From the IMG/VR virus record IMGVR_UViG_3300036770_006330: a stretch of DNA of 64,000 nt; one strand, given 5' to 3'. This document shows positions 46,891 through 59,797 of the stretch, one piece after another. Below the pieces are notes generated by a model. It was not told the DNA's origin. It ran no database searches and saw only the letters and a program-made list of their open reading frames with translations. This DNA is from a virus. A program made the translations under genes and the position numbers. Position 1 is the stretch's first letter, and each line of letters starts with the position of its first letter.

Positions 46891-47178
46891 AGATGACCCC
46901 CTTGGGTCTGATAGTAGGTAGTTAGATTTTAGGGGCACTAACGGCATAAGTCAAGAGCCGCAGCCGTGTTCGCCGACACACACCCAACGCCGCCGTAGGT
47001 CGTCGCCCGTCGGCTGTCCCCGCCAACCCCCTTCGGCAGTCCCGCCGCCGACGACGCAGATGTCTCGTCTTCTTTTGACGGTGGCGGATGACCGATTACG
47101 GGCACTAAAAAACCACCCCCACAACCGAGATTTATCTCAGCGCAGGGGTGGCTTAGAAGTCAGGCTATCGGGGTTTTG

Positions 47179-47673
47179 CTACACCGCAACCTGTGTGAAT
47201 GGGCAGACTGCCTGCTCTCCGAACACCTTCTCGTAGAGCCAGCGACCGTTTTGCCAGTCGGTTTCCCAGCCCCCATCTGAACCGATGTCTACGCACGAAC
47301 CGTAGATGACCTTCGCACGGATGAGAACGGCTGTTACGACCGTGTCATAGGGCTTCTGGTTCGTCTTACAGAAGTCAAAGATTTGGTGCTTCTTCTCACG
47401 GTCGCCTGCGTAGGCTTTCACCCACCACTCGGGCTGTTCGGGTAGTGCTTCCCACGAAAAGGTTTCGTGGTCTTGGTCGTTTAGTTCTTGACCATTGAAG
47501 CGAAAGTAGCCTTCGGTGAACTCAGGCTCCCCTTTCCCATCCCAGCCAGCGATGACTATTCCTTCCAACTTGGCTTGCTCGATGATTTTCTTAGCGTCAA
47601 GCGCTAGTTTCCCGAACATCCAAGCCGACCCGACATTACGTTTGTCTCGGGTGACGTAGTGCGTGTATCCCAT
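47179..47673 (-). CDS. Cassette gene, conserved phage hypothetical (MGYTHY...HETF...FCKT..KPYD)
   Basis: Recognisable motif set, with its own promoter and terminator. Confidence 0.8.
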   Translation of the reverse strand: MGYTHYVTRDKRNVGSAWMFGKLALDAKKIIEQAKLEGIVIAGWDGKGEPEFTEGYFRFNGQELNDQDHETFSWEALPEQPEWWVKAYAGDREKKHQIFDFCKTNQKPYDTVVTAVLIRAKVIYGSCVDIGSDGGWETDWQNGRWLYEKVFGEQAVCPFTQVAV

Positions 47674-47735
47674 TAGGTAGGTATTCCCCTTTCTTGTTGT
47701 AAGTCAGTCTAGGGGCACTTGGGGTATCTGTCAAA

Positions 47736-47936
47736 CTATCGGATGCGATTTGCTGGGTGGCGTTGCTTGGTCGCAGCCAAAGCATCGCAGTTCAGATGCT
47801 CGTAGCCGACCCCCCGCAGGTGCTTCACGGGAGTCCCGCCATCCATCTGGCAACCACAGTTCAGGCACGTGGCTTGCTTTGCCAGAACAACGACGACTCC
47901 GAGTTTGACTGGGTTATTGGTAATAGTTAGGTTCAT
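47736..47936 (-). CDS. Cassette gene, small Zn-binding protein
   Basis: CLNC...HLNC; leaderless. Confidence 0.65.
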   Translation of the reverse strand: MNLTITNNPVKLGVVVVLAKQATCLNCGCQMDGGTPVKHLRGVGYEHLNCDALAATKQRHPANRIR

Positions 47937-48189
47937 ACAAGCAACTTACCCAACACCCATAAAGAAGTCAAGTATTTCATCGCTGGCGAAGTTCTTATCG
48001 CCGTCGATTTCTCCTACCGGCTTAGTGCTAATCATTTTTGCGCCGGGGCTTGCGGGTTTCCTGAGTTCTTCTTTTGACGGTGGCGGATGACGGGCGTACC
48101 CCAGACCACCTACACGGGCTTGACCTGACCTACCAAATGGTCACGGGAAATGCTTGACTTTCATCCGTGTGGTTCGTAAGTTGGAATGT

Positions 48190-48471
48190 ATGCGTACACC
48201 TACCTATTATCTTGTCCGTACCTATGTCCGTGTGATTTTCTGGACTGCTGTCGCCTTCGGGTTGATTTGGCTGGTCAGCACTTCTGTCGGTTCGTGGGAT
48301 AAATACGAATGTGTAGAAACCAATGTGGTCGTTCAGCCCTACGACACAATGTGGGCTATCGCAGAGAAATACTGTGACGGCAACATTGAGGTCGCAGTAG
48401 CCGATTTGATTTCGGCGCACGGCTCTGCTACGGTTATCGTTGGGCAAACTATTGAGGTGCGTAATAAGTGA
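48190..48471 (+). CDS. Membrane-anchored LysM-domain protein
   Basis: N-terminal TM segment, then VVVQPYDTMWAIAEKY...IIVGQTI. Promoter TTGACT-N17-TAAGTT immediately upstream. Confidence 0.75.
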   Translation: MRTPTYYLVRTYVRVIFWTAVAFGLIWLVSTSVGSWDKYECVETNVVVQPYDTMWAIAEKYCDGNIEVAVADLISAHGSATVIVGQTIEVRNK

Positions 48472-57508: not shown

Positions 57509-59112
57509 TGTCCACAAAGGTCAAAGAGAACTCTGGCTACAAAGTCGTGGGGGTCACAACCCCCACGCAAGTAGTTCCAGACGCAGAAATGCTGAACCGT
57601 GACGACTTGGAGAGTGGGCGTTGGGTTATTCACTCAACCACAAACTCTGGTGACGAAATCGGTCTGGACACAGACGCTCGCACAATGTTCGTTCCGACAT
57701 ACGACGACGAACTCTCTCGCCACTTGCGAGCGCAACAGATGTTCTACGCCAAGTGTTCGCCAACTCCGAAACAATGGAACAAGTTGTGGGCGAAGCGTGG
57801 CTACGCAAGCACTCGCACCATTACTGCCTGTGAGCAACTCCGTATCACGACGCTGATGATGAACGCTGGCTTTGAGCCACACAAGAACTTACAGCGTGGT
57901 TCGGAAATGCTTGACGGCTTCACAATGGCTACTCACAACGACTTTCAGGCAGTTGTATTGGGTGCTATCTCCTGCCATAACACGCAAGGCGAGCAAGCGT
58001 TCCTTGACGGAGTGAAAGCAGTCCACCCCGAGTGGATAGAACCACTCGTCACTATCACCACGCAAGCAACCGACTTCTACAACGCCGTTGAGAAACACAA
58101 CAAGCAAGCACTCAAAGACGAGTGTGCGTGGCGTTGTATTCCACCACTCAACGCAACGGGTACAAATGTTCGTACTCACGGCTTTGGCTACACAGAGCAA
58201 CTCGCTAAGTGGGTGGAGAACATCATTGGCGCACTCACCGACGAGGGAAAGTCTCAGCCGAAACTTGGCAAGCCAGAGCAGACCCAAGACAAAGAAGGCG
58301 AGGGCGAAGGCGAGGGCGAAAGCAAGAGCGACAAGGACAAAGACGGTGAAGGCTTGTCCAAGAGCGAACTACGCAAACTCTTGCGTGGTATCAAAGAGAG
58401 TGCCAAAGAGAAACAGGCTTGGCATCACGGAACAGTACCCACTAAGGGCGTGAAGCAAATGTGGGGAGAGTTGCGTATCTCCAAGCCAGCACTCACCAAG
58501 CACCTTATGGGTGCTATTGGCAAGAAGCGTGTTGCGTCGCAGACAGGTCGCAACCCACGCCGTATGTCTCGCTTGCTCACAGACCCAGAGCGTCGTATCT
58601 TTGACCGTACCGTGCGTGGGGCAGGTGGAGTGGTACTCGTAGATACGAGTGGCTCTATGTCTCTCTCTGAGGAACAGGTCAAGCAAATCGTTATCCACGC
58701 ACCGTCAGCACTTGTGGCGCAGTATTCGGGTGGCTCTCGTATTCGCCCGAACCTGTATGTAATCGCCAACAAGGGTCGTATGGTGGACAAGTTGCCACGC
58801 CCGAACGGTTCTAACGAGGTGGACTTTCCAGCGTTGGAGTGGGCTATCAAGCAACGCCAACGCCCGAACTCGCCTGTTATCTGGGTATCAGACGGTGGAG
58901 TGACGGGTCGTGGCGACAACTGCCACGACGACCTAACAATGGCGTGTATTCGTCTGTGTAAGAAAGAAGGCGTGTATGTCGTGCCAGACCCAGACACGGC
59001 GATAGTCCTACTCAAACGCTTACAGCGTGGCGAGAAGGTGACGAGCGTTGTACCCGACACTCTCAAAGAAACCTACAAAGAGGCAACAGGTCAAGAACTC
59101 GTACTCCGTTAG
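57508..59112 (+). CDS. vWA-domain protein (MoxR partner)
   Basis: MIDAS motif VLVDTSGSMS, later VIWVSDG, acidic EGEGEGE linker; coupled to the AAA gene. Confidence 0.88.
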   Translation: MSTKVKENSGYKVVGVTTPTQVVPDAEMLNRDDLESGRWVIHSTTNSGDEIGLDTDARTMFVPTYDDELSRHLRAQQMFYAKCSPTPKQWNKLWAKRGYASTRTITACEQLRITTLMMNAGFEPHKNLQRGSEMLDGFTMATHNDFQAVVLGAISCHNTQGEQAFLDGVKAVHPEWIEPLVTITTQATDFYNAVEKHNKQALKDECAWRCIPPLNATGTNVRTHGFGYTEQLAKWVENIIGALTDEGKSQPKLGKPEQTQDKEGEGEGEGESKSDKDKDGEGLSKSELRKLLRGIKESAKEKQAWHHGTVPTKGVKQMWGELRISKPALTKHLMGAIGKKRVASQTGRNPRRMSRLLTDPERRIFDRTVRGAGGVVLVDTSGSMSLSEEQVKQIVIHAPSALVAQYSGGSRIRPNLYVIANKGRMVDKLPRPNGSNEVDFPALEWAIKQRQRPNSPVIWVSDGGVTGRGDNCHDDLTMACIRLCKKEGVYVVPDPDTAIVLLKRLQRGEKVTSVVPDTLKETYKEATGQELVLR

Positions 59113-59370
59113 GAGTGCGAAGGTGGGCTGGTCTGGTCAAATCACGCTTCCTTGCCAGACCAGCCCACAGAAACACGCAATAGGAAGCGATTACAGACGA
59201 GTTAGAGAAGCGTCGGCTACCTAGATAGGGGGGCAAATGAGCGACGACAAGTGCCACAACTGCCAGACAACAAACCCAGACGACGACATACAAGAAGGTC
59301 TGTGCGCTGAGTGCTTCCGTGACTTGCCAGAAGGCGAGTGGCACACAGCAGGTACTTGGGGGAAAGCGAA

Positions 59371-59520
59371 ATGAGCGACACATCATCTGAGCAAACGCTC
59401 ACGCCAGAGGAACGCAAGGAACTGAAAGAACAGTTGGAATACGCACTCGCACAACCAGAAGGAACGCTACAACGACTTCTGGGGGAGTTGTTGGTGAAAC
59501 TCAACCCACCCATTGAGTAG
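59371..59520 (+). CDS. Small hypothetical protein
   Basis: ATG 59371 after GGGGG; ends just before repeat copy 14. Confidence 0.5.
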   Translation: MSDTSSEQTLTPEERKELKEQLEYALAQPEGTLQRLLGELLVKLNPPIE

Positions 59521-59548
59521 TGCTAACTGTTTGACGGTGGCGTATGAC

Positions 59549-59797
59549 CTATCGCTTGCTCATTAGGTTCTTGTCGTAGAACCTAACAAACAGAAAGATG
59601 TATCCGAGAAGCAAGCAGTAGCGATACGAGATAATGTCGTCTATGACTTGCTCGTATCTCAGTATGAGAAGGGCTAACCACAAGCCAAAGCCATAGACGA
59701 AGCCCGACGCTAGAAAGCCCAACACGCCAGCCAAGACAAGGCTGGTTGTTGTTGGTGGCTTTTCTTTCGGTGTTGTCTTTGGAAACTGATTAGGCAT
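59549..59797 (-). CDS. Small two-TM membrane protein
   Basis: Two hydrophobic segments; ends immediately next to the repeat. Confidence 0.65.
   Translation of the reverse strand: MPNQFPKTTPKEKPPTTTSLVLAGVLGFLASGFVYGFGLWLALLILRYEQVIDDIISYRYCLLLGYIFLFVRFYDKNLMSKR

Follow-up and report, generated by a model that had tools for sequence, protein, structure and literature searches.

Why should one stretch of a phage chromosome lack almost every short palindrome? The question is raised by the IMG/VR record IMGVR_UViG_3300036770_006330, of which a 64-kb window (W; the window is the whole stretch of 64,000 nucleotides that was analysed) was studied. W is part of the genome, ~150-170 kb in size, of a large, uncultured tailed phage. 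The initial annotation had reported, from reading of the letters, that coding DNA at 47,100-59,750 is purged of most 4-bp palindromes. This was borne out by observed-to-expected ratios (O/E), and the depletion is stronger than claimed; the purged domain (here also called the block) is wider, at 43,470-59,900, and has sharp edges. We have hardly any doubt that this domain is under selection against restriction sites as such. It is positionally defined, and the selection is extreme, continuing and directed against Type II sites, namely 4-mer palindromes, 5-mers with an interrupted palindrome, and degenerate symmetric words of 5 or 6 letters.

Extent and word specificity

The O/E ratios were calculated under a second-order Markov model for all 16 palindromic 4-mers. 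More than 300 relatives of this phage are found in IMG/VR, all of them metagenomic, with the complete ones being 138-170 kb long. Thirteen of them were used for comparison, consisting of four complete genomes (G1-G4), which were fetched whole, and 30-50 kb each of nine more. Twelve words (AATT, ATAT, TATA, TTAA, GATC, GGCC, TGCA, CATG, AGCT, CGCG, ACGT and TCGA) were found to be purged in W within the following limits.

43,470-59,900: palindrome-purged domain of 16.4 kb; the 12 palindromic 4-mers occur 48 times against ~660 expected
51,409-59,900: zero zone with 0 copies of the 12 words over 8.5 kb (position list, 500-bp counts, word-free runs)
59,798-59,901: right edge, or anchor, where palindrome density steps from 0 to 27-56/kb
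43,470-43,725, minus strand: left edge; the first ~85 codons of an SNF2 helicase frame (which opens with TTG) are purged and the remainder has normal density

In the domain as a whole, the observed over expected counts are AATT 0/26, ATAT 0/28, TATA 0/29, TTAA 0/17, GATC 0/40, GGCC 2/74, TGCA 2/61, CATG 2/53, AGCT 6/63, CGCG 9/95, ACGT 11/92 and TCGA 16/85. For the narrower interval of 47,100-59,750 they are AATT 0/21, ATAT 0/24, TATA 0/26, TTAA 0/12, CATG 0/39, GGCC 0/55, TGCA 0/49, GATC 0/29, AGCT 1/47, CGCG 2/70, ACGT 5/75 and TCGA 8/67. The residual copies in this interval are thus more than the one TCGA and few ACGT first listed as exceptions; they are clustered in spacers at 51,361-51,408, with further clusters to the left at 44,777-44,807 and 46,301-46,344. 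CCGG, which had been counted among the absent words, is only partly depleted (13/36 in 47,100-59,750 and 20/52 in the domain), although none occurs in 55,839-59,945. The reported tolerance of GTAC, GCGC and CTAG was confirmed, with counts of 45/57, 48/65 and 22/39 respectively in the narrower interval and values near expectation across the whole domain. These three words are tolerated in all 14 genomes.

Outside the domain, palindrome O/E lies between 0.76 and 1.17 with the exception of GATC. The earlier statement that the purged words are common in 1-43.6 kb therefore holds (O/E 0.8-1.2 there) for all but this word, whose absence is not specific to the block. No GATC is found in the whole of W, where ~206 are expected (0/152 in 1-43,600; 0 against 166 expected outside the block), in the whole genomes of G1-G4 (148-169 kb, ~400 expected each) or in the fetched pieces of the other nine relatives. 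As a side observation, the first kilobases beyond the right edge (W 60,000-64,000, and also in relatives) carries 55-67 palindromes/kb compared to a genome average of ~45.

Among the 136 strand-symmetrised 4-mers, the thirteen with the lowest O/E are all palindromes. AT-only, GC-only and mixed palindromes are all depleted in the domain, whereas words of like composition that are not palindromes have normal or raised frequencies (ATTA O/E 1.79, AAAT 1.59). The depletion also reaches interrupted palindromes (GGNCC 1/19, TTNAA 1/30, GANTC 9/48, CCNGG 10/38 and GCNGC 22/59 in the domain) and, in 46.4-59.9 kb, degenerate symmetric words (CCWGG 0/21, GGWCC 0/13, TTSAA 1/23, CASTG 1/21) together with degenerate 6-mers (CCACGG/CCGTGG, or CCRYGG, 0/16; CTCAAG/CTTGAG, or CTYRAG, 0/12). 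All 6-bp palindromes taken together number 35 in the domain against 236 expected under an order-1 model.

Codons, proteins and relatives

The initial annotation had named codon usage as an effect to be corrected for. Synonymous codons were shuffled inside each gene, keeping the protein and the per-gene codon usage, for 21 confident block genes (9.9 kb) and for 18 control genes, for which GATC was excluded. The block genes contain 18 purged-word sites compared to 330 +/- 14 after shuffling (minimum 291), while the controls have 1349 compared to 1456. The four words counted as tolerated occur 103 times in the block genes and 122 times after shuffling. The depletion survives codon correction and is not a codon-usage effect.

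The purge was also observed at the protein level. For eight dipeptides (DM, HM, HV, MH, MQ, NM, WP and YM), every possible coding sequence contains one of the 12 words. None of these dipeptides occurs in the block proteins, where 27 are expected by composition, whereas the control proteins contain 82 compared to 78 expected. The proteins have thus been altered by selection that acts on words in the DNA.

A palindrome-poor domain was found in all thirteen relatives. It lies beside a conserved pair of genes, an ATPase and a vWA-like protein, and ends ~0-1 kb past the pair. The genes needed for this comparison are the following in W.

41,689-43,725, minus strand: SNF2 helicase
56,633-57,508, plus strand: MoxR/NorQ-like AAA+ ATPase (AAA_5; Pfam PF07728, E 6.8e-11), present in every complete relative
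57,508-59,112, plus strand: 534-amino-acid protein with an N-terminal HExxH region and a C-terminal vWA-like domain
59,790-60,263, minus strand: gene with an HA domain and a sigma70-region-4/Mor-like helix-turn-helix (HTH), lying across the right edge (Pfam PF03457, PF04545)

The set of purged words was found to vary between the relatives, as CATG and TGCA are kept in many of them, AATT, ATAT and TATA in G3, and AATT and CATG in G4. The ATPase-vWA pair contains 0 of every purged word in W, 27 TGCA and 13 CATG in G2, and 11 AATT, 14 TGCA and 8 TTAA in G4. As for the helicase orthologue, its word counts are normal in W, G1 and G3, whereas seven words are missing from it in G2, whose domain covers the gene. 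As the same orthologue is purged or normal depending on the lineage, selection acts in place, by position. We argue that this pattern counts for selection on a positionally defined stretch and against the import of a foreign block.

Two minor features of word usage were seen in the relatives. G1, the closest relative, has 20 kb without AGCT (13,430-33,651) and 14 kb without CCGG (17,730-31,965) far from the block, probably in the tail-fibre region. Islands of CGCG/GCGC (up to 43 and 31 per 2 kb) occur in or beside the purged domain at 126-130 kb of G030 and 30-32 kb of G040, and are probably CG-rich repeats.

Polarity of the domain and its likely explanation

The left edge lies in or beside the helicase gene, where there is no long non-coding region of the kind that forms the injection stop, rich in repeats and DnaA boxes, at the inner border in T5. 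The right edge falls at equivalent places in five phages (W, G1, G3, G019 and G025), in which the first site is met +47 to +169 nt within the 3' end of the HTH gene; G1 is collinear with W at ~70% nucleotide identity. Alignment of the right edge in five phages revealed coding conservation only and no distinct element, and no sequence shared from edge to edge was conserved across genomes. An 11-mer common to both edges of W (CGACCTGCTTC, at 43,707 and 59,887) was treated as chance because nothing comparable is found in G1 or G3 except the 15-mer described below.

Word-free runs in W mostly end at 59.9-60.7 kb, the exceptions being ACGT (61.4 kb), ATAT (61.1 kb) and TATA (62.4 kb). Their starts are spread from 42.5 kb (TATA and ATAT) through 43.2-43.3 (AATT and TTAA), 45.9 (TGCA), 46.3 (CATG and GGCC), 50.3 (ACGT) and 51.4 (TCGA) to 55.8 kb (CCGG). 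In W, G1 (anchor at 136.3-137.1 kb) and G3 (inverted, anchor at 17.0-17.6 kb), the runs are nested: they share their right end, and the left end depends on the word. Sites per kb leftward from the W anchor are 0, 0, 0, 0, 1, 1, 3, 0, 7, 2, 8, 3, 4, 19, 11, 9, 24 and 47, and a step followed by a ~16-kb ramp is the profile of all three genomes. Such a profile, anchored at one edge, fits the prediction of progressive exposure from an entering end.

We therefore favour, as rather likely, the explanation that the domain is the first DNA segment to be internalised, in the manner of the first-step-transfer (FST) DNA of T5 or the leading region of T7 and far more extreme than either. Entry would start at the right edge near 59.9 kb and proceed leftward, and the entered segment would stay in the cytoplasm without protection during expression of the small early genes that it carries. 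After the products of these genes have taken effect, the other ~90% of the genome, with its normal site frequencies, would no longer be restrictable; a general anti-restriction function as in T5 would serve as the model for these products. Any cut in the exposed segment would be lethal, and sites would therefore be purged from genes and spacers alike, even by means of amino-acid changes. Exposure time would fall with distance from the entering end, which would give the ramp. GATC, absent genome-wide in the family, would then be the one specificity that the later protection leaves uncovered. The domain may coincide with a long terminal repeat (T5/SPO1 style) or with a slowly pulled-in early unit (T7/N4 style), and the data cannot tell which.

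One cut at any place is fatal to a phage. Freeing a tenth of the genome from sites is of use only where the remaining nine tenths have a protection that is closed to the purged part. Genes for C5, N4/N6 and D12 DNA methyltransferases were not found in five complete relatives, and the unpurged 90% is therefore not covered by these families of self-methylation. With normal site counts in that 90% and no such gene found, the family must neutralise restriction generally after the first minutes. The ~20 block genes of no known family are the obvious candidates for a general anti-restriction function, and the same problem has been open in T5 for decades. The initial annotation had likewise proposed that the block is exposed to host restriction before protection is established. 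That proposal is supported in part. The word specificity, the codon-corrected counts, the protein-level effect, the lineage-specific words and the dependence on position fit selection against restriction on a positionally defined stretch, the ramp fits progressive exposure, and a genome end and first entry at this place are putative. The suggestion of the initial annotation that the small genes are anti-defence or takeover candidates agrees with their being small ORFans in separate units like those of the T5 pre-early region, but no family or fold match for anti-defence was obtained.

Several observations weigh against first entry from the right edge. This edge falls within a conserved gene whose reading direction leads into the block; a terminus at this point would leave the gene intact only with a terminal repeat. 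The purged domains of G2, G4, G039 and G040 are 28-43 kb long, take in the helicase and have a sharp far edge too, and the purge in G2 is strongest on the far side. The large terminase is nearest to those of psiM2, Gordonia and FelixO1-like phages (32-44% identity) and does not indicate fixed ends; no inference on packaging type was drawn. The relatives flagged 'DTR' in IMG/VR are circular assemblies with 127-bp overlaps, which were rejected as real terminal repeats, and termini and entry order cannot be mapped from them. A 15-mer, RACGGTGGYGKAWGA, is present in 18 co-oriented copies in W (44,225-63,808, plus strand; 19 matches compared to 1.1 expected), and its zone runs ~4-5 kb past the right edge into unpurged DNA, which would not be expected from a simple genome-end picture. 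Finally, no block protein was matched to any anti-restriction family or fold that is known. In relatives, fragment contigs frequently end within or at the domain; these breaks were not used as evidence of ends, as they fit microdiversity equally.

Known phages, in which timing is the established way round restriction, provide the closest comparison for first entry. T5 and BF23 inject their terminal-repeat FST DNA first, and resist restriction-modification (R-M) of Types I, II and III unless sites are present in the FST DNA or terminal repeat (PMC10644984; 10.1101/866236). The FST region, as seen in the T5 annotation, and the block each make up a bounded ~8-10% of the genome, and in both the small genes, uncharacterised for the most part, stand in two divergent sets, which in W are a minus-strand array running from 55,829 to 44,483 and a plus-strand operon from 56,163 to 59,112. 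Its small genes mostly lack a known family, as in the T5 pre-early region, and many of them have their own terminator. The remaining genome is site-rich yet protected in T5, by an unidentified early function, and would be so in W. There are also differences. No named pre-early or anti-restriction family was matched in Pfam/PHROGs, although A1, A2 and dmp were not searched individually and remote homology is possible, and the capsid and terminase are unrelated to those of T5. The site depletion of the T5 region, which had been cited as precedent, is much weaker in the T5 sequence (4-mer palindrome O/E 0.84 in the FST region compared to 0.97 in the next 40 kb). The purge in W is about an order of magnitude stronger (O/E ~0.07 for the 12 words), with protein-level effects and a graded profile, and a terminal position and two-step entry are only inferred for W.

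In Autographiviridae, R-M sensitivity is set by motifs in the leading injected region (PMC12455610). The leading region of T7-like phages (with Ocr and transcription-coupled entry) resembles the block in that its motifs alone decide R-M sensitivity (PMC12455610), progressive entry predicts a gradient with distance, and the majority of the block genes are directed away from the end that is proposed to enter. Unlike T7, no Ocr- or ArdA-like protein was recognised in the W block, the W-type genome is four times larger, and the strong terminators on many block genes would hinder transcription-driven pulling. T7-type RNA polymerase (PF00940) was unmatched in five complete relatives but also in the control genomes, and the search was therefore uninformative.

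Avoidance of restriction sites over a whole genome is exemplified by the GATC-free Staphylococcus phage K, and surveys of such avoidance in phages are said to have been made by Sharp in 1986, Rocha in 2001 and Rusinov in 2018. The family studied here shares with it the counter-selection of palindromic Type II sites and the absence of GATC from genomes of 148-170 kb. It differs in that the other words of W are purged only regionally, with sharp edges and for most tetramers at once. Further cases of first-entering DNA are the SPO1-type host-takeover module, which lies in a terminal redundancy, and, in conjugative plasmids, the leading region. Both are filled with small genes for early or anti-defence functions, each gene in a promoter-terminator unit of its own, although entry differs in the plasmids (transfer of single-stranded DNA). 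We know of no comparable tetramer purge in either.

The first rival explanation, which we consider unlikely, dispenses with ordered entry. The whole genome would enter at once, cuts elsewhere than in the block would do no harm or could be mended after the early products had appeared (by end protection, ligation, recombination or nuclease inhibition), and only the early genes would have to stay intact. It is in keeping with the coincidence of the domain with early-type, individually terminated gene units, with residual sites that are denser in spacers (~4.6/kb) than in confident genes (~1.8/kb), and with the putative status of any terminus. On the other hand, the spacers are still purged ~9-fold, the depletion is as strong in dispensable ORFan cassettes that vary greatly between lineages as it is in conserved genes, gene borders are ignored in that the purge takes in ~250 nt of the helicase gene and ~110 nt of the HTH gene, and nested runs anchored at one edge are not predicted. 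The purged spacers, dispensable ORFans and flanking-gene ends fit the lethality of any exposed cut better than a need to keep only early genes intact.

Self-protection from the phage's own nucleases is somewhat less probable again. Endonucleases injected as cargo or made very early would cut host DNA at short palindromes, and the phage DNA present at that time would have to be site-free. The phage does encode a giant, 3,745-amino-acid multi-enzyme cargo protein with Zeta-toxin, NUDIX, sigma-70 region 4 and DnaJ domains, Davison has put forward the idea of A1 as a restriction enzyme in T5 (10.1101/866236), and word sets vary by lineage as swappable modules might. Nevertheless, at least 12 tetramers and many 5- and 6-mers would demand many nucleases, and neither the block nor the 3,745-amino-acid protein yielded a nuclease domain. 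The rest of the genome must still come later or be protected, which makes this a variant of the timing model and no replacement for it.

Import by recombination of a block from a donor phage that is palindrome-poor genome-wide appears very improbable, even though GC content is 3-5 points higher in the block than elsewhere in the genome, the gene complement varies greatly, the assemblies of relatives are often interrupted within the block and G1 has a separate word-specific gap in its AGCT-free 20 kb. The ATPase, vWA-like, helicase and HTH orthologues are purged or not according to position and lineage, the edges lie at homologous positions in orthologous genes of five phages at ~70% nucleotide identity, sister lineages differ in their word sets, and neither the block nor the first 20 kb of W has a near DNA match in phage or plasmid collections. 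Causes other than restriction (mutational bias, avoidance of DNA structure, or a shunning of sites for the phage's own modification that would keep early genes free of it) can be given almost no weight, as palindromes of every composition are purged while their non-palindromic counterparts are spared, three palindromes are fully tolerated, the degenerate symmetric sites typical of Type II enzymes are affected, and 4-bp palindromes are unable to form hairpins.

Taking first entry further, we tentatively suggest that the step-and-ramp profile could be a sequence-encoded record of chromosome delivery. Entry would be staged or slow, from a fixed end near the ATPase-vWA pair; the 16-43-kb leading domain would encode a broad-spectrum anti-restriction mechanism that spares ~90% of the genome from essentially all Type II enzymes except those specific for GATC; and the co-oriented 15-mer would act as a polar signal. 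If this is true, the sequence of an uncultured phage alone could reveal, by such a profile, where its entry end and its anti-defence islands lie, and nested, anchored word-free runs would be a marker, in metagenomic phages, of probable entry polarity and of islands of early or anti-defence genes. It is already known in principle that restriction sites are avoided in the DNA that enters first. Within the literature searched, the magnitude of the purge, its breadth over tetramers, the protein-level footprint, the nested anchored runs and the conservation across an uncultured phage family are new. The domain shows the strength that R-M selection can reach over a defined stretch of phage chromosome and is, to our knowledge, the most extreme regional purge of restriction sites described.

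Genes and elements of the block and the window

Apart from the genes given above, the following features were annotated in and around the block.

44,483-55,829, minus strand: array of ~20 small genes, mostly ORFans (coding score, conservation)
46,296-46,347: palindrome-rich spacer inside the purged domain, with SalI-, PvuII-, FseI- and XhoI-type sites
51,964-52,164, minus strand: DUF4314 protein
52,418-52,651, minus strand: Xre-type HTH protein
54,740-55,387, minus strand: acidic protein of 215 amino acids, net charge -21
55,830-56,162: divergent intergenic region between leftward array and rightward operon (sign change of AT skew, ORF orientation)
56,163-56,573, plus strand: gene for 136 amino acids, first of the rightward operon (coding score 0.22/codon; conserved in G4)
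21,138-22,544: major head protein
24,830-24,903: tRNA Met-CAT
25,956-26,028: tRNA Val-TAC
39,218-39,291: tRNA Ile-TAT

Elsewhere, W encodes a ribonucleotide reductase, a primase-helicase, a PAPS-reductase-like protein and giant virion-type proteins, among them the one of 3,745 amino acids, and its capsid protein is at most 47% identical to Gordonia phage proteins. About 30 block proteins were compared with Pfam and PHROGs, and the array proteins other than the Xre-type HTH and DUF4314 proteins have no Pfam or annotated PHROG family. Several block proteins are strongly acidic. For the most acidic of them, the 215-amino-acid protein, no call was made on DNA mimicry: its AlphaFold2 model (pLDDT 83) has no sequence match in the PDB and no Foldseek match at E <= 0.001, and its best VIA-align score (Z 6.7, to pilins) is under the quoted noise level of the tool.

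The 534-amino-acid protein has no Pfam match, and none to the Pfam vWA family. A MIDAS-like DxSxS motif (D379, S381, S383) is invariant in a 31-sequence alignment, and the best Foldseek rows for its AlphaFold2 model (pLDDT 80) are almost all vWA proteins, NorD included, at weak E values of 0.01-0.06. On the strength of this predicted fold, the vWA label appears reasonable. An HExxH motif is also conserved in the N-terminal helical half (consensus RAHEMxHAK). Together these suggest a zincin-plus-vWA architecture resembling the DUF2201-type partners of MoxR ATPases. The family comprises more than 440 members, of which 0 carry a Pfam annotation. The vWA-like gene is adjoined by the HTH gene in 14 of 14 genomes, and the probable GTG start of the latter, at 60,263, follows a 15-mer.

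Many of the minus-strand genes were found to be separate units, in which a long terminator hairpin is followed by the reverse complement of the 15-mer and then by AAAAGAAG and the start codon. Residual palindromes group in the spacers beside these terminator and 15-mer motifs. An Rfam scan of 43-64 kb gave nothing, matches in a sigma-70-type promoter scan were no more than chance, and Sigma70_r2 was not found in the relatives. The 15-mer RACGGTGGYGKAWGA is co-oriented in the matching zone of G1-G4 (G1 121,816-141,476; G3 12,553-31,098, minus strand), and its sequence and orientation are conserved in relatives whose proteins are only ~60% identical. Inside the block it lies 8-20 nt upstream of minus-strand starts, and further copies past the block stand at junctions between plus-strand genes, with two classes of flank (CGGGGCTTCGG-N10-15-TCTTCTTTT and GTATCGCTAAC). 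It was considered as a promoter, a ribosome site and a Chi-like site, its orientation being suitable for the last only if a DNA end lies beyond the unpurged 5 kb, and no role was assigned.

The palindrome-rich spacer is one of the 'polylinker-like' clusters, in which 6-8-bp palindromes (GTCGAC, CAGCTG, GGCCGGCC or GCGGCCGC, and CTCGAG) occur ~45-90 nt from a copy of the 15-mer. The cluster is kept by position in G1 (121,731-121,770) and G3 (29,919-29,965) and may represent a functional cis element.

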